DNA from: Clostridiaceae bacterium
GTDB lineage: Bacteria > Bacillota > Clostridia > Oscillospirales > Acutalibacteraceae
Reading direction: 5' to 3'
Length of the DNA stretch: 64,000 nucleotides
Assembly (NCBI GenBank): GCA_016285645.1
Contig: JAEERC010000044.1
Span: 35,040 to 99,039, forward strand
In this document: one piece after another, positions 2,145-48,923 of the stretch
Layout of the letters: the number at the start of each line of letters is the position of its first letter
Position numbering within the stretch: the first letter of the stretch is position 1
Made by a program: the position numbers and the translations under genes
The notes under the pieces: generated by a model
Seen by the model: only the letters and a program-made list of their open reading frames with translations
What the model was told of the DNA's origin: nothing
Databases searched by the model: none

Positions 2145-2218
2145 GCGGGTGTAGTTCAACGGTAGAATCCCAGCCTTCCAAGCTGGTCGCGTGGGTTCGA
2201 TTCCCATCACCCGCTCCA
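2145..2218 (+). tRNA. tRNA-Gly(TCC)
   Basis: Cloverleaf GCGGGTG...CACCCGC, anticodon loop CTTCCAA, GGTTCGATTCC T-arm, encoded CCA. Confidence 0.97.
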
Positions 2219-2249
2219 AAAAATCCTGCCGTAAAACGGCGGGATTTTT
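2219..2249 (+). terminator. Rho-independent terminator after tRNA-Gly
   Basis: aaaaatcctgccgt-aaa-acggcgggattttt hairpin plus U tract. Confidence 0.8.
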
Positions 2250-2309
2250 CTTTTTCTGTTTATTATTTATACTTGAAAATCCGGATGAAATTAAAAGCGA
2301 AATATCATC

Positions 2310-2338
2310 TTGACAAAACAAAAACCTTAATATATAAT
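2310..2338 (+). promoter_or_regulatory. Sigma-A promoter of tRNA-Arg-His-Gln cluster
   Basis: TTGACA (2310) -17 bp- TATAAT (2333). Confidence 0.85.
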
Positions 2339-2361
2339 TATCAAGCGGTTTTTAAGAATAT

Positions 2362-2438
<77 letters not shown>

Positions 2439-2441
2439 TAT

Positions 2442-2519
2442 GGTGGTTATAGCTCAGTTGGTTAGAGTGCCAGGTTGTGGCCCTGGAGGTCGTGGGTTCG
2501 ACTCCCACTAACCACCCCA
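2442..2519 (+). tRNA. tRNA-His(GTG)
   Basis: G-1:C73 pair, anticodon loop TTGTGGC, GGTTCGACTCC T-arm, CCA end. Confidence 0.97.
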
Positions 2520-2569
2520 TTAAAGAATTACGCAAGGCATATCTTAAAGCCCTGCGTTTTTTGTTATAT

Positions 2570-2644
2570 TGGGGTGTCGCCAAGCGGTAAGGCAAAGGAC
2601 TTTGACTCCTTCACTCGTGCGTTCGAATCGCGCCACCCCAGCCA
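2570..2644 (+). tRNA. tRNA-Gln(TTG)
   Basis: TGGGGTG...CACCCCA stem, anticodon loop CTTTGAC, CCA end. Confidence 0.95.
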
Positions 2645-3360: not shown

Positions 3361-3548
3361 AAAAACGCCCCGCCTTGCCGATGCGCCGACAGTAACCTGC
3401 TCTCAGCAGGTGGGTGCCTCCCGGTGATTTCGCGCTCCCTTCGTCCGCCTGAGCGGGAGGTCTGCAGTCCCTCACCGGAGACCGGCTCCCTATAAATTAC
3501 GTGTTGGGTTACTTCTTGGTCGCATTTATCGCACAAGGCAGGGTCTTT
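3361..3548 (-). ncRNA. ssrS: 6S RNA
   Basis: Minus strand ~185 nt rod: 5' GACCCTGCCTTGTGCG pairs with 3' GCATCGGCAAGGCGGGG; contains GGGAGCC and GGCACCCACCTGCTGAGAGCAGGTT, matching the conserved Firmicute 6S core. Confidence 0.85.
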
Positions 3549-23781: not shown

Positions 23782-23866
23782 GCGGGTATGGTGAAACTGG
23801 CAAACACGCCGGATTTAGGATCCGGTGGAGCAATCCTTGCAGGTTCAAGTCCTGTTACCCGCACCA
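23782..23866 (+). tRNA. tRNA-Leu(TAG)
   Basis: GCGGGTA...TACCCGC stem, anticodon loop TTTAGGA, long variable arm, CCA end, 85 nt. Confidence 0.96.
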
Positions 23867-24035
23867 ACAAAAAGCACGCCTTGCGCGTGCCTTTTTTGTT
23901 GGCGAATACAAATGGATTTGCTGACTGCAAGAATTCAAATAAGGGGTCCCCGAAAAACAAAGTTTTTTGGGGGGAAGGAGGAACGGCGGAGCGAATGAGG
24001 GCAAAGCCCGAACGATACGGAGCCGGTGACGACGC

Positions 24036-24060
24036 GGTTCAAGTCCTGTTACCCGCACCA
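24036..24060 (+). repeat. Exact 25-bp duplicate of the tRNA-Leu 3' end (att-like)
   Basis: GGTTCAAGTCCTGTTACCCGCACCA identical to 23842-23866. Confidence 0.95.
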
Positions 24061-24094
24061 TGAAAAAGGCAAGTCGAAAGACTTGCCTTTTTCA
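24061..24094 (+). terminator. Terminator-like hairpin after the tRNA 3'-end duplicate
   Basis: tgaaaaaggcaagtc-gaaa-gacttgcctttttca, perfect 15-bp stem. Confidence 0.8.
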
Positions 24095-25468: not shown

Positions 25469-25789
25469 GTAGGGGCGGCTTTCCCAAAAGCCGCCGCGTA
25501 GGGAACGCCGTTCGGCGTTCCGGGCAAAACAAGGTTTTGCCGCCGTAGGGGCGGATATTATCCGCCCGCAACAAGGCATCCGTTAGGACATAAATTTTGC
25601 GCAGACTCCTTTACGCCGTGCCACCTGTCTCGCCTGCCGGCTCGGTCGGTGCTTCTGCCTTCGGCAGAGGTTCCCACCGGGAACCCGCACCCCCAAAGGA
25701 GGAGCCCACGACGGACGGATATTTTGATATATATAAACGGCGGGATGTGGTCATCCCGCCCTACAAGTTATATTTATCTTGCGATAACC
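25469..25789. repeat. REP-like mosaic cluster A (GTAG-tagged palindromes)
   Basis: GTAGGGGCGGCTTTCCCAAAAGCCGCC, GTAGGGAACGCCGTTCGGCGTTCC, GTAGGGGCGGATATTATCCGCCC and inverted GGCGGGATGTGGTCATCCCGCCCTAC; homologous to 48440-48831. Confidence 0.9.
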
Positions 25790-25890
25790 TCAATTCGTTG
25801 TCCCCATTTCCTCTGTTTTCCGCATAATTCTATTGAGTTTTCCCTGTTTATCATTTATAATAATTGCTGAATTGTGCGGAGGGGTTATTG

Positions 25891-27663
25891 ATGAAAACTG
25901 ATAAAAACACGAACGCTTTGAATGCGGAAAACACAAACGAAAGCTCGGGCGCGCTTCTCAGAAAGGCGGTTAAAAAGAACGCTAAATATCTCGTCGGCAT
26001 TGTTCTTTTCTCCGTCGTAACCGCGGGCTTCACCGCTGTCAATCCCGTTTTTTACAAAAAAATAATTGACGAAGCCATTCCGAACAGGGATATAAAAACC
26101 CTGCTTTTCTGTGTAGCGCTGATGGCGGCGTTTCCCGTTGTAAATGTGGGAATATCGCTGCTGAGGCAAAGGTGCGTTTTTAATTTTACGGATAAATGCG
26201 AAAGGGAACTGAGAACTCAGTTTTTCGCTAAAATACTGAGAATGAACTACCCCGCTTTTATGGAGCTCGGGCCCGTAAAACTGATGTCCGTAATCACAAG
26301 AAGCACGGGTCGGATAATCGAATTGTTTTTAAGCACCGATGTAATAACCGGCGTGTCCGCTGTTTTTCAGTCGCTGCTTATCTTCGGAATAATTTTCCGT
26401 TACAACAAAATCATCGCGGCAGTCACCTTTGTTGTGGTTCCCGTCATTTTTATCGCCATAAAATTTTTCCAGGATAAAATCGGAAACCTGCAAAAAGATT
26501 ATCTCCGCATTCTGAACAGGGGTGAAAAATTCTTTCTGCAGGTGTTCAACGGTATGAAAACCGTGCGTTCCTATTCCGGGCAGGAAAAAGAAAAGGCGGG
26601 GCTTAAGCAGTGGCTCGATGAGGTTTCAAAGAACAAATGGGATATTGAAAAGTCCAATATAACCGTCAGGACTTTTATTCCTGTGGCGGCGGCTCAGGTT
26701 GTGCTCGGTGGCATATTCACTTTCTGCGCCTTCTCGGTTATGAAGGACACAATGACAATAGGAATACTGGTAGCGGTTATCACTTATGTTCCGATGCTGA
26801 TAAACAGTATTCAGAGTATATTGAATATGGGAATCGGGAAAATATCCATTTCGAAAATCCTAGACGACCTCGATTCAATTCTCAACGAGGAGGATGAGTA
26901 TGACGGCGGGAACAAAGACGAAATCCCGAACAGCGGCTCACTCGCCTTTAAGGATGTTGACTTCACCTACGGCAGGGAAAACTTCGACCTGAAGATTGAA
27001 AACCTCGAGATTGAAGAGGGCGATTTTGTAACCATAGTGGGCACAACGGGCGGCGGAAAATCCTCCGTAATGGATATAATCAACAAGTATTATCCCATAA
27101 CTTCGGGCAGCGTTTCGTTTGACGGCGTAAGCATTGACGAGATAGGCACCGACACTTTACGCAGGCATATAAGCACTATGTTCCAGGATGTGTATATGTT
27201 CAACGGCACAATAGCGGAGAACATCGCCTACCCCGGAAAGCCCGATCCGGACAGAGTAAATGAGGTTATGGAAAAAGCGCAGCTGACGGAGTTTGTCGGC
27301 AAACTGCCGAACGGGGCACAAGAAATTGTTGAGGCGGACGGCGCGAACTTCTCGGGCGGCGAATGCCAGCGAATCGCCCTCGCCAGAATGCTTTATAAAG
27401 AAGCGGATATTTATCTTCTTGACGAGCCGACAGCCGCTCTGGACGCCAACACATCCAAGGCAATATTCGATGTGCTCGCGGATGAAAACAGAAACGGCAA
27501 AACAATAATTGCTATTACCCACGACGCGGGCAAGGCGACATACGGCAACAAGGTTATTGTTGTCAGCGGCGGCAGAATAATCGAGTACGGCCCGCCCGCG
27601 AAACTTCTGGAACAAAACGGCGCTTTCGCTTCCCTTTACGAAGCGCAGACAAAAATGGATTGA
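25891..27663 (+). CDS. ABC exporter, fused permease/ATPase
   Basis: TM helices plus GTTGGGKS, FSGGECQR, LLDEPT; ATG 25891 after GGAGG. Confidence 0.92.
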   Translation: MKTDKNTNALNAENTNESSGALLRKAVKKNAKYLVGIVLFSVVTAGFTAVNPVFYKKIIDEAIPNRDIKTLLFCVALMAAFPVVNVGISLLRQRCVFNFTDKCERELRTQFFAKILRMNYPAFMELGPVKLMSVITRSTGRIIELFLSTDVITGVSAVFQSLLIFGIIFRYNKIIAAVTFVVVPVIFIAIKFFQDKIGNLQKDYLRILNRGEKFFLQVFNGMKTVRSYSGQEKEKAGLKQWLDEVSKNKWDIEKSNITVRTFIPVAAAQVVLGGIFTFCAFSVMKDTMTIGILVAVITYVPMLINSIQSILNMGIGKISISKILDDLDSILNEEDEYDGGNKDEIPNSGSLAFKDVDFTYGRENFDLKIENLEIEEGDFVTIVGTTGGGKSSVMDIINKYYPITSGSVSFDGVSIDEIGTDTLRRHISTMFQDVYMFNGTIAENIAYPGKPDPDRVNEVMEKAQLTEFVGKLPNGAQEIVEADGANFSGGECQRIALARMLYKEADIYLLDEPTAALDANTSKAIFDVLADENRNGKTIIAITHDAGKATYGNKVIVVSGGRIIEYGPPAKLLEQNGAFASLYEAQTKMD

Positions 27664-27729
27664 GCAGTTTAAAACAGTCATCGGTTGATGGCTGTTTTTT
27701 ATTTTGAAAAAAGCACTTTCGTTATAACC

Positions 27730-28348
27730 GTAGGGCACGGATTCTTCCGTGCCGTTTTGTTTAATTAGCAATGAGAAAGGAGTAATGAGCAATTAAGGGG
27801 CTAACGCCGATTATATAAATGCAGGAAACGCGGAACGGCGTTCCGGGCAAAACACAGTTTTGCAATGTAGGGCACGGATTCTTCCGTGCCGTTTTGTTTA
27901 ATTAGCAATGAGAAAGGAGTAATGAGCAATTAAGGGGCTAACGCCGATTATATAAATGCAGGAAACACGGAACGGCGTTCCGTATGAAACAAAGTTTCAT
28001 GTCATTCCGAGGGAGAAACTTGTTTTGACCGTGGGAATCTCTGCGTTTTCAAGCACTGTCGGGATTGCCACGGCAGTGTGCGCACTGCCTCGCAACGACA
28101 GAATCATTTTCCCGATTCTGTGTCCTCGCGGACATACTTGTCGCGGGCGACAGGTTGTAAGAACCTGCCTGCGGCAGAACCTTGTTACTCGCTCCGCTCG
28201 TAATATGCCCCTACGGCGGAGATTTCATTTAAGCATTCACGACAGACGGATATTTTGATATAATTAAACGGCGGGATTAGGGAATCCCGCCCTACGGTGA
28301 AAAACGAAATAATGCGGTAACTTGCGGGCGGCAGGTTGCCGCCCCTAC
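27730..28348. repeat. REP-like mosaic cluster B (GTAG and GTCATT-type palindromes, 137-bp-period tandem duplication)
   Basis: GTAGGGCACGGATTCTTCCGTGCC at 27730 and 27867; GTCATTCCGAG...GCAACGAC at 28001-28099; homologous to cluster D (inverted) and partly to A. Confidence 0.9.
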
Positions 28349-28392
28349 AGTATAATTGATTTTGCGGCGAACGGCGGTTTTTGAATGTTTTT

Positions 28393-34401: not shown

Positions 34402-35034
34402 GCAGGGCGACAGATTGTCGCCCTTTTTTAATGACAAATTCCAAATTCCCAATTCCGAATTAAAGGGCGCAGGGCGTCGGATAATATCGCCACACCCGTC
34501 TTGTTCGCTTCGCTCACAATCCACCCTCTCCGTTCTCGGAGAGGGCTATAAGCACATTACCGCAAACCAACCGTTAACAACCGTAGAGCACGGATATATC
34601 CGTGCCGTAATGTCATTCCGAGGGAGTGAAACGGCCGTGGGAATCTCACATTTAAAGGGATGTTTCAATAATAATCGGAGATTGCCACACCGTTGTTCGC
34701 AACGGTTCGCAATGACATCCGCTTTGCGGATTATACGTCCTCACGGACGGTCGCTAAACGAAACGCATATATGCGTTCCCTACGGTGAGAAACAAGTTTT
34801 ATGTTTACAATAGCCCTCTCCGAGAACGGAGAGGGTGGCGCGACGACGCAAAGCGGAGGAGTGACGGGTGTGGCGAAAAGCGAATCAGACATACATTGCA
34901 AATCTCCGTTTTGCCCGGAACGCCGGACGGCGTTCTCTACGGTGAGAAACAAGTTTTATGTTTAAAAAAGTTCACTCGATGAAAGCACAAAAACGAAGAG
35001 GTGCGGGTCTCCGCCTTCAAGCCCGCGCCCCTGC
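34402..35034. repeat. REP-like mosaic cluster C with long inverted arms
   Basis: 29-bp perfect IR 34521-34549 / 34810-34838; 14-bp IR 34487-34500 / 34863-34876; GTCATTCCGAG...GCAATGAC core 34612-34716; 28-bp direct repeat at 34780 and 34937. Confidence 0.88.
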
Positions 35035-41659: not shown

Positions 41660-42076
41660 GGGTATTTGTCGGCGCAGCGGTCAAAACTTGCAGGCGCTCC
41701 AAGTCGTAAGCAAGTTTTGGGCACCGCAAGAGGGCAGGTTATTGTCGCCCGCAACACGACCGTCCGCGAGGACACAGAATCGGCGAAACGATTCTGTCAT
41801 TGCGAGGCAGTGCGCACACTGCCGTGGCAATCTCGACAATTGTTGTAAAATAAACAGAGATTCCCACGGTCGAAACATGTTTCTCCCTCGGAATGACATA
41901 AAATACAGTTTCATCCGGAACGCCGGACGGCGTTCCCTGCATTTATAATCGGCGAAGCTCATAAATTACTCATTTCGCATTGCTCATTTCTCATTATAAA
42001 ACGGCACGGAAGAATCCGTGCCCTACGGTAAAAATGGATATTGCGGAAAACAGCGGGCGCAGGCTGCCGCCCCTGT
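41660..42076. repeat. REP-like mosaic cluster D (inverted homologue of cluster B)
   Basis: Minus-strand GTAGGGCACGGATTCTTCCGTGCC (42026), heptamer tract, GCAGGGAACGCCGTCCGGCGTTCC, GTCATTCCGAG...GCAATGAC (41897-41796). Confidence 0.9.
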
Positions 42077-48354: not shown

Positions 48355-48923
48355 AAAATCCACCCGATAAGGGTGGATTTTTCAATGAGCAGTGAGGAGT
48401 GAGAAGTGAGGAATTGAGGGAGGGCTGCGCCCTCACCCGTTTATATGTCCTCGCGGACGTCCTTGCGGCGGGCGGATAATATCCGCCCCTACGGCGGCAA
48501 AACCTTGTTTTGCCCGGAACGCCGAACGGCGTTCCCTACGCGGCGGCTTTGGGGAAAGCCGCCCTACGGTTACAACAAGATTCATATAGTTTGCAGGGCG
48601 GGATGACCACATCCCGCCGTTTATAGAAATCAAAATTTCCCTCCGTCGTGGGCTCCTCCTTTGGGGGTGCGGGTTCCCGGTGGGAACCTCTGCCGAAGGC
48701 AGAAGCACCGACCGAGCCGGCAGGCGAGACAGGTGGCACGGTGTTGCAATGCAACATCGTGACGGAAGGAGTCTGCATATGTTTTGTCCTCGCGGACATC
48801 CTTGTTGCGGGCGGATAATATCCGCCCCTACGGCATATAATCGGCACAAAGTGCCCCTTAACTACTCATTTCTCCTTTCTCATTACTCATTACATAAAAA
48901 ATCCACCCGATAAGGGTGGATTT
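48355..48923. mobile_element. Putative non-autonomous REP/heptamer element (cluster E, 48381-48897) flanked by a 26-bp duplicated terminator
   Basis: AAAATCCACCCGATAAGGGTGGATTT at 48355-48380 and 48898-48923; inward heptamer tracts; GTAG-tagged palindromes homologous to cluster A. Confidence 0.7.

Follow-up and report, generated by a model that had tools for sequence, protein, structure and literature searches.

The 64-kb stretch of DNA analyzed here (the window) comes from an uncultured rumen Clostridia bacterium, from the ruminant gut, and it carries two clusters of small palindromes, A and E, which lie 23 kb apart in inverted orientation yet are 93 to 100% identical in their shared sequence. 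The original prediction was that these clusters are circular permutations of one repeat unit of about 330 bp. This raises the question of whether the permutation is real and, if so, how two copies of one unit came to begin and end at different points. Five intergenic clusters of such palindromes are present in the window:

25469-25789, plus strand: cluster A
about 27720-28350: cluster B
about 34520-34980: cluster C
about 41740-42070: cluster D
48441-48836, minus strand: cluster E

A lenient scan for GTAG followed by a hairpin performed no better on the window than on shuffled sequences. Therefore, a stricter scan for GTAGRG-tagged palindromes with a stem of at least 8 bp was used instead. It yielded 16 palindromes in the window versus 0.35 in shuffles, and all 16 were inside the five intergenic clusters. 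The palindromes are imperfect, are 20 to 50 nt long, and have a conserved GTAG 5' of the palindrome, the exception being one element of cluster E (REP4), which is tagged with GCAG. They are high-copy and mostly extragenic, with a contig depth of 30 to 260 for the REP modules versus 4 to 7 for the flanking genes. By the definition of Di Nocera et al. 2013 (PMC3733652), the palindromes of the window count as GTAG-type REPs. A leader, (A)ACC or GCC, precedes most of them, and the resulting AACC/GTAG junction (the slash marks the point of joining) was found in three clusters (B, C, and E) and in the corresponding locus of a related strain, L001, that is discussed below. Cluster B has a 137-bp period repeated 1.8 times with 99% identity. 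REP2 and the linker hairpin L form a two-hairpin module that recurs in L001 and in clusters B, C, and D. The same repeats are found in Ruminococcus, Oscillospiraceae, Acutalibacteraceae, Fimenecus, and other Clostridia metagenome-assembled genomes (MAGs).

Cluster A consists of a single composite unit, with the following parts:

25469-25789, plus strand: the whole unit, 321 bp, in the order REP1, REP2, L, REP3, degenerate accessory hairpin, body, inverted REP4, S
25469-25497, plus strand: REP1, GTAG-tagged palindrome GTAGGGGCGGCTTTCCCAAAAGCCGCCGC
25498-25540, plus strand: REP2 (GTAGGGAACGCCGTTCGGCGTTCC) and linker hairpin L (GCAAAACAAGGTTTTGC)
25545-25590, plus strand: REP3 (GTAGGGGCGGATATTATCCGCCCGC), followed by AACAAGG and the degenerate accessory hairpin
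25599-25727, plus strand: body, with outer stem CTCCTT and AAGGAG, containing a variable hairpin after a CGTC-like tag, the nested 63-nt core, and a tail (GAGCCCACGACGGACGGATATTTTGA)
25627-25689, plus strand: IN, the nested 63-nt core (GTCTCGCC...CCCGCA), delimited by flank divergence, depth, empty sites, and covariation
25738-25764, minus strand: REP4 (GTAGGGCGGGATGACCACATCCCGCCG), inverted relative to REP1 to REP3
25765-25789, plus strand: AT-rich spacer S; its last letters, ATAACC, form the leader that usually stands 5' of a GTAG REP, but none follows here

Cluster E, read on the minus strand, amounts to 1.15 units and contains the following parts:

48441-48836, minus strand: the whole cluster, between two convergent terminators
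48785-48834, minus strand: REP3 module copy a, which adjoins the body; its 3' flank, AACAAGG, is that of A
48446-48495, minus strand: REP3 module copy b, with the 3' flank CCGCAAGG, the sole copy in strain L122
48496-48834, minus strand: the 339-bp period that is absent in L122
48630-48776, minus strand: body, with the extra palindrome CACGATGTTGCATTGCAACACCGTG
48668-48730, minus strand: IN copy of 63 nt, missing from L124, from L125, and from a Logan contig (joint 48667 to 48731)
48593-48619, plus strand: REP4, tagged with GCAG; the whole module is missing from L124 and from Logan contigs (joint 48580 to 48645)
48497-48592, minus strand: S (48568-48592), REP1 (48540-48567), REP2 (48512-48539), and L (48497-48513)

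The two clusters share three matches. Two are inverted blocks, one of 177 nt with 93% identity (25613-25789 with 48568-48744) and one of 104 nt with 97% identity (25473-25576 with 48461-48564). The third, of 35 nt with 100% identity (25542-25576 with 48800-48834), pairs the REP3 of A with the second REP3 of E. A 23-mer of the body occurs exactly twice in the window and not at all in shuffles; this count and that of the GTAGRG palindromes versus shuffles indicate that the similarity between A and E is not due to chance. When A was doubled and aligned with the minus strand of E, the local alignment ran unbroken through the join between the tail and the head of A, with GATAACC/GTAGGGG in A against TGTAACC/GTA-GGGC in E. 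A module map made with blastn-short gave the order REP1, REP2, L, REP3, accessory hairpin, body, inverted REP4, S in A and the order REP3, accessory hairpin, body, REP4, S, REP1, REP2, L, REP3, accessory hairpin in E. The doubled-A alignment and the module map bear out the prediction that the two clusters are circular permutations of one unit of about 330 bp. The ends of E are formed by a 50-nt direct repeat of the REP3 module (48446-48495 and 48785-48834, 94% identity) with a period of 339 bp. The shortfall of the 321-bp A relative to E is mainly a 20-nt palindrome (TGTTGCATTGCAACA region) in the body of E. Thus, the direct repeat and the alignment also confirm the periods of 321 and 339 bp and the extra palindrome that had been predicted. 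Open reading frames overlapping A and E (for example, 48433-48849) were rejected as genes; they are stop-free repeats read through.

The boundaries of the two copies fit the original prediction less closely. Both were expected to start at GTAG. A does, but the homology of E begins 3 nt before its GTAG (GCC), and the sequences 5' of the two copies differ (AATAAT versus ATATGCC). The far end of E lies after the accessory hairpin GTCCGCGAGGAC, not at GTAG. A was also thought to end exactly where REP1 would restart. The tail of A does align across the join, but its final ATAACC is an ordinary REP leader that here abuts a segment carrying an ABC-transporter gene.

Natural variants of the E locus were sought among contigs of other samples whose flanking proteins are exactly those of the window. 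In L123, an independent JGI assembly, E is identical to that of the window, base for base. In L122 there is one REP3 module, and exactly 339 bp (48496-48834) is missing; the crossover could lie anywhere in a 28-nt identity (48468-48495 and 48807-48834). L124 lacks the REP4 module and IN, and L125 has kept the unit, with another body hairpin (of the type found in L004) and no IN. Logan contigs of other runs show the same indels, one of which skips the 63 nt of IN. The flanks of L122 to L125 are near-identical to those of the window, and the differences at the E locus are therefore fast, module-level events. A joint in a Logan contig that "goes back 331" was considered as a circle junction and rejected because it is the duplicated REP3 module placed on its other copy. 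Further afield, metagenome contigs L002 and L003 have the body without REP3, and REP4 is in the opposite orientation in L002. A first pattern for the body, with hairpin 2 of the window, found no viral contigs, no species genomes, and four metagenome loci, and only about 10 copies of the body-bearing unit were collected. The unit is a mosaic of at least eight modules that vary independently between strains. Copy number varies as well, from no complete unit in L122 to 1.15 units in E, with cluster B at 1.8 periods and L001 with periods of 361 and 744 bp.

The A locus differs from that of a related strain on a larger scale. In L001, which encodes the same adh_short protein, one 1-kb array replaces A, the ABC-transporter gene, and B. 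The segment concerned is as follows:

25790-27729, plus strand: ABC-transporter gene segment between clusters A and B, absent from L001

The L001 array has every junction needed for A and E (REP4-S-REP1-REP2-L and L-REP3-accessory hairpin-body-S-REP1). Its direct repeats are spaced at 744 bp (204 nt), 361 bp (93 nt, S-REP1-REP2-L), and 137 and 224 bp, and their phases differ from that of E. Other modules are cyclically permuted between the two strains (M2-R4-M1-R6 in the window versus M1-R6-M2-R4 in L001), and the IN site is empty in L001. The 1.94-kb ABC segment has ATAACC on both sides (25784-25789 and 27724-27729), the second directly before GTAGGGCACGG of cluster B. Immediately to the right of the first ATAACC is the promoter region of the ABC-transporter gene. 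Depth over the ABC segment is zero in samples that hold the neighboring adh_short gene. The junction 25789/25790 was seen in the window alone, the depth of the runs that hold the ABC gene being too low to cross it. No exact match to the protein of the ABC segment is on record, and a search for further variants of the A locus via the 121-amino-acid neighbor returned only sub-kilobase contigs. The simplest reading is that A and B were once one array. The ABC segment may have been inserted at an AACC/GTAG junction, or it may have been lost from L001 by recombination between arrays.

No Y1_Tnp, RAYT, or HUH gene was found in the 64-kb window by tblastn with E. coli RAYT and IS608 TnpA sequences as queries. 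The one weak tblastn match was a Y1_Tnp open reading frame in a related MAG, L052 (PF01797, E 3e-13), that is followed by tandem GTAG palindromes. Its homologues (at least 7936 relatives) are in RHS/YD toxin cassettes without flanking REPs, and the family was dropped as a candidate REPtron for that reason. In the characterized systems, TnpA_REP cuts at CT or CA beside the REP, with GTAG serving as a guide or recognition motif rather than as the cut site (PMC8266576). CT and CA are absent at the AACC/GTAG and GCC/GTAG junctions.

The nested 63-nt core has a distribution of its own. Contigs of many runs pile up on 25627-25689 to a depth of about 1400 to 1700, versus about 5 for the flanking gene, and the flanks of contigs that contain IN diverge exactly at 25627. 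A 22-mer of its invariant 5' part is present at more than 116 loci among the matches listed for species-representative Clostridia genomes, and IN is spread over several Clostridia families. A diverged copy is present in two Ruminococcus phages and one fecal phage contig. The plasmid collection gave no match to IN. Comparison of filled and empty sites fixed its ends, giving GTCTCGCC...CCCGCA and a length of 63 nt in the window. The empty sites of L001 and L124 read CCACCT/CCCCCAA relative to the window, and the pair L125 and L004 gives AGCT/CCCCCAG, in each case with no duplication. Neither terminal inverted repeats (TIR) nor target site duplications (TSD), the hallmarks of MITEs, were found at these filled/empty pairs. 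The 3' flank of IN nearly always starts with CC, often CCCC(C).

Structural constraint on IN is evident in an alignment of 52 distinct copies, in which 42 columns are invariant. The element has a conserved 26-nt 5' segment (a 5-nt lead, a mini-hairpin, and a short linker to the P2 stem) and then a three-way junction. Its two hairpins and the enclosing stem are paired in 97% of cells, and hairpin 2 has four pairs with double changes, a level reached in 0 of 500 shuffles. The third, mini-hairpin (GCC-TGCC-GGC) is backed by a compensatory change in the phage copy. Mismatches in the stems are A.C 14 times and G.T 2 to 4 times, an excess which suggests, in counts taken from nonindependent copies, that the folded strand is the reverse complement. 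IN is found in the loops of GTAG REPs, in bodies of other genera that resemble that of the window, and, in one Ruminococcus MAG, in a MITE-like repeat. It is also found within genes. In a ParA-like ATPase it is in frame as an insertion of about 25 amino acids after the D-x-x-x-Q-G motif, relative to 8ray_B, and it splits a TnpV protein so that PF14198 falls in two parts. Direct reading revealed no stop codon in any of the six frames of IN. A full-text literature search for the IN sequence found no paper. IN is widespread and, it appears, undescribed, and our best guess is that it is a nonautonomous element moved as single-stranded DNA. IN is the part of this system that may be new; the relation between A and E appears to be that of a GTAG-REP mosaic array, a known kind, here in rumen Clostridia.

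How, then, did A and E come to be permuted? The original prediction left a choice between a circle cut by an HUH enzyme at GTAG and a tandem array. The arrays of related strains and the gain and loss of single modules favor the array. We consider it probable, with considerable room for doubt, that A and E are two differently phased excerpts from the same tandemly reiterable REP/BIME-like mosaic array. Such an array would be a chain of separable modules, comprising four GTAG-type REPs, two accessory hairpins, the AT-rich spacer, and a body of about 130 nt that hosts the 63-nt element. With the same modules present at many loci in near-identical copies, stretches could be duplicated, deleted, or swapped by unequal exchange, by replication slippage, or by repair of breaks templated by another copy (gene conversion). 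The changed stretches would start and stop inside repeated modules. Duplication between two copies of one module would give a partial tandem such as E, with its 339-bp period and REP3 at both ends, and deletion would leave one unit or a lone REP. The remnants of an array would then look circularly permuted in any pairwise comparison, so that the permutation itself is expected for such arrays. We infer that recombination or replication by the host, and not an HUH enzyme dedicated to the task, was responsible, and we infer likewise the directions of the individual events and the route by which units reached new loci. Because A and E are 93 to 100% identical at a distance of 23 kb, some transfer of copies between loci is needed. 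A point against the array is that A is exactly one period, and the array model needs an unverified history of the ABC segment.

Alternatively, the unit, in whole or in part, may leave the chromosome as a small circle, either of single-stranded DNA through a RAYT/IS200-like HUH enzyme or of double-stranded DNA through recombination between REPs, and re-enter at a REP hairpin, the permutation being set by the REP that is used. We think this unlikely, although several observations fit it. L122 lacks exactly one 339-bp period and has kept one REP3. Within E, the REP3 at the body is followed by AACAAGG, as in A and L004, and the resident REP3 is followed by CCGCAAGG, as in L122, which is the pattern that a single crossover with a circle would give. 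A not only is one period long but also starts at GTAG, it is nearly identical to E although the two are 23 kb apart, and the REPs are GTAG-tagged like RAYT substrates (PMC8266576). However, the same 339-bp difference would result if one period were deleted or exchanged unequally between direct repeats. Individual modules of the unit are also gained and lost on their own, and the periods found in arrays include 137, 361, and 744 bp. Breakpoints had been predicted to map to GTAG, but the second boundary of E, the boundaries of the REP4 module, and the left end of the 361-bp repeat of L001 do not. The right end of A lacks the second REP1 that Campbell-type integration would leave. No Y1_Tnp gene is in the window, the Y1_Tnp family of relatives is in RHS/YD loci without REPs, and known TnpA_REP enzymes cut at CT or CA (PMC8266576), neither of which is present at AACC/GTAG or GCC/GTAG. 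Furthermore, a longer array able to yield both copies, which the original prediction had named as evidence against a circle, is largely what L001 has at the A locus. The covariation in IN raises the further possibility that the body is a functional structured RNA gene, a small RNA or a cis-regulatory element, with the REPs as terminators or stabilizers and the copies as paralogues. The conservation of the core, its covarying hairpins, the persistence of the variable hairpin as a hairpin with unrelated sequences, and the presence of IN-containing contigs in one transcriptome sequencing (RNA-seq) run would be in accord with this. Nevertheless, an RNA gene is highly improbable. E is flanked by the convergent genes HAD and YajC, with a copy of one and the same terminator hairpin on either side, and a cluster placed between the terminators of convergent genes is unlikely to form a transcription unit of its own. 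Strains differ in whether a given site has the core, which is also found in REP loops, in phage DNA, and in frame in ParA and TnpV genes. The ratio of IN depth to flank depth in the RNA run equals that of DNA runs, so that the run is uninformative; neither it nor the location supports an RNA function of IN. As RNA, the body folds with weak z-scores (-0.7 and -1.7), and Rfam 15 gave no match over cluster A at the gathering threshold or even at E <= 10. Lastly, collapsed or misjoined repeats could in principle have produced the one-unit A and the partial tandem E, given that short-read assemblies break in these repeats, many loci end in IN, Logan contigs are fragmentary, and the right junction of A was seen in the window alone. 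We give an assembly artifact almost no credence, since E was reproduced base for base in L123, with variants in three other assemblies, and all internal junctions of A recur in E, L001, or Logan contigs.

The natural strain variants, with their near-identical flanks, expose the elementary events of REP-array change: a whole period is gained or lost between two REPs, one REP module drops out, a hairpin is exchanged for another, and the nested 63 nt is present or absent. GTAG REP arrays have received little attention so far in this phylum, and the junctions described here are concrete targets for tests of array versus HUH models. Short-read assemblies of Clostridia from rumen and gut are interrupted at these arrays, which may also bring about rearrangements on the scale of whole genes: the 1.9-kb ABC-transporter segment lies between two arrays and is missing in L001. 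The 63-nt core is of interest in its own right: it has no annotation, is present in great abundance in gut metagenomes, is under structural constraint, and is accommodated within proteins. A bolder reading joins the two subjects. Units of REP arrays would be excised as circles of about 0.3 kb and re-pasted at REP hairpins by a putative HUH-type enzyme, and the 63-nt core would represent a novel kind of single-stranded DNA mini-transposon, free of TIR and TSD, that lands 5' of C-runs and has colonized the DNA of several Clostridia families and their phages, entering REP loops and, in frame, genes. If true, it would account for the permuted, period-long copies and for the precise presence or absence of 339 bp, but we regard it as a long shot.

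For the 63-nt core, the comparison is with ERIC/IRU repeats with internal insertions and with Rickettsia palindromic elements (RPE). Like these, IN is a small structured repeat found inside other repeats and in frame in genes without breaking them, with all six reading frames open. RPE and intragenic REPs are also treated in PMC3733652. Unlike them, IN has an unrelated sequence, forms a three-way junction rather than a simple palindrome, and is found in several Clostridia families and in Ruminococcus phages.

REPIN/RAYT systems and IS200/IS605 elements move through cutting and rejoining of single-stranded DNA by Y1 HUH enzymes, with circular single-stranded intermediates. The unit described here resembles them in being hairpin based, without TIR or TSD, with GTAG 5' of the hairpin, and in the precise presence or absence of the 339-bp period and the 63-nt core. 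It differs from IS200/IS605 elements and PATEs in that the window lacks a Y1 gene and the unit lacks a conserved target tetranucleotide. Known IS200/IS605 and RAYT enzymes cut at CT or CA or at a guide-specified site, not at GTAG (PMC8266576). In addition, REPINs are inverted doublets, in contrast to the multimodule chain found here.

The closest counterparts are the BIMEs (bacterial interspersed mosaic elements) of Proteobacteria, known from the work of Gilson and of Bachellier. There are differences. The host here is a rumen Clostridia bacterium, and the text of the 2013 survey (PMC3733652) makes no mention of Firmicutes. Each unit has four different REP sequence types, with REP1 to REP3 head to tail and only REP4 inverted; REP and iREP do not alternate. 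The unit also includes a non-REP body of about 130 nt with a nested 63-nt element, and no cognate RAYT, such as REP/RAYT systems have, is in the 64-kb window. Even in E. coli, the multiplication and tandem clustering of REPs and BIMEs are still unsettled (PMC8266576). BIMEs frequently form consecutive tandem copies (PMC8266576), and the clusters of the window share with BIMEs and the large GTAG-REP clusters of Proteobacteria (PMC3733652; PMC8266576) the short GTAG-tagged imperfect palindromes, the intergenic position, often after convergent or codirectional genes, the assembly with conserved linkers (here L and S) into composites that are tandemly reiterated together with flanking DNA, and the strain-to-strain change in copy number and composition.

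The body, the ~130-nt non-REP part of the composite unit found in REP clusters A and E, contains a nested 63-nt element, which is located at:
25627-25689, plus strand, cluster A
48668-48730, minus strand, cluster E
loci outside the window, L006-L121 and L129:1495-1557

In this element 42 columns are invariant, the hairpins covary, and all six reading frames are open. No TIR, TSD, or Rfam match was found for it. More than 116 Clostridia MAG loci carry the element, as do Ruminococcus phages, and its depth in rumen metagenomes is ~250 times that of flanking genes. It resides in REP loops and also, in frame, within ParA-like and TnpV genes. The 63-nt element merits separate treatment as a finding of its own.

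Between clusters A and B lies:
25790-27729, ABC-transporter gene

The gene has its own promoter-like site and terminator, and the segment has ATAACC at each end. It is missing in L001, a related strain with the same adh_short protein at the A locus, and in most samples that have the neighbouring gene. Either the segment was inserted at an AACC|GTAG junction or it was lost elsewhere via recombination between the arrays.

Other modules of clusters B, C, and D include:
27730-27982, 137-bp composite, 1.8 copies at 99% identity, cluster B
28001-28100, 34612-34717, and 41795-41897, modules GTCATTCCGAGGGAG...CGTGGGAATCTC and GAGATTGCCACGGCAGTGTGCGCACTGCCTCGCAATGACA, clusters B, C, and D

The 137-bp repeat, comprised of REP5, an AATGAG-rich module, a REP2-like sequence, and a linker hairpin, is a fresh tandem duplication. 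The GTCATTCCGAGGGAG...CGTGGGAATCTC and GAGATTGCCACGGCAGTGTGCGCACTGCCTCGCAATGACA modules are common to all three clusters and occur in both orientations.

Cluster E is bracketed by:
48355-48440 and 48836-48923, ~90-nt inverted copies

Each copy has three parts: a terminator hairpin, ATCCACCCGATAAGGGTGGAT (two in the window versus none in shuffled sequences); a module rich in AATGAG; and a small GC hairpin. Therefore, the convergent HAD and YajC genes around E share one repeated terminator module.

Y1_Tnp (PF01797) proteins of ~232 to 250 aa from gut Clostridia (L130-L136) belong to a very large family, with at least 7,936 relatives. Their genes are directly 3' of RHS/YD-repeat toxin genes, with an additional copy ~1.9 kb downstream in L130, and no GTAG REPs were found in their flanks. 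Downstream of the Y1_Tnp gene of a related MAG (L052:700-1200), the last ~60 nt of the gene plus a GTAG-tagged palindrome, GTAGGGGATTTCGTTCCAATCAAGGAACCGTCCCCTG, form three repeats with a ~180-bp period.

RNA genes of the window include:
2145-2644, plus strand, four tRNA genes (Gly, Arg, His, Gln), adjoining the 6S RNA gene
3363-3547, minus strand, 6S RNA gene (64 bits)
23782-23866, tRNA-Leu(tag)

The first two are ordinary housekeeping features. The 3' end of tRNA-Leu(tag), 23838-23871, recurs 194 bp downstream at 24032-24068 with 94% identity, which looks like an att-type scar, left by an element that integrated or has been lost.

The body also includes:
25609-25626 and 48731-48767, variable hairpin, also in L002, L005, and L011

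Its sequence is wholly different among copies, with pairing always kept. CGTC (or AGTC) is directly 5' of it, and this CGTC tag resembles that of the CGTC-tagged REP superfamily (Di Nocera et al. 2013, PMC3733652).
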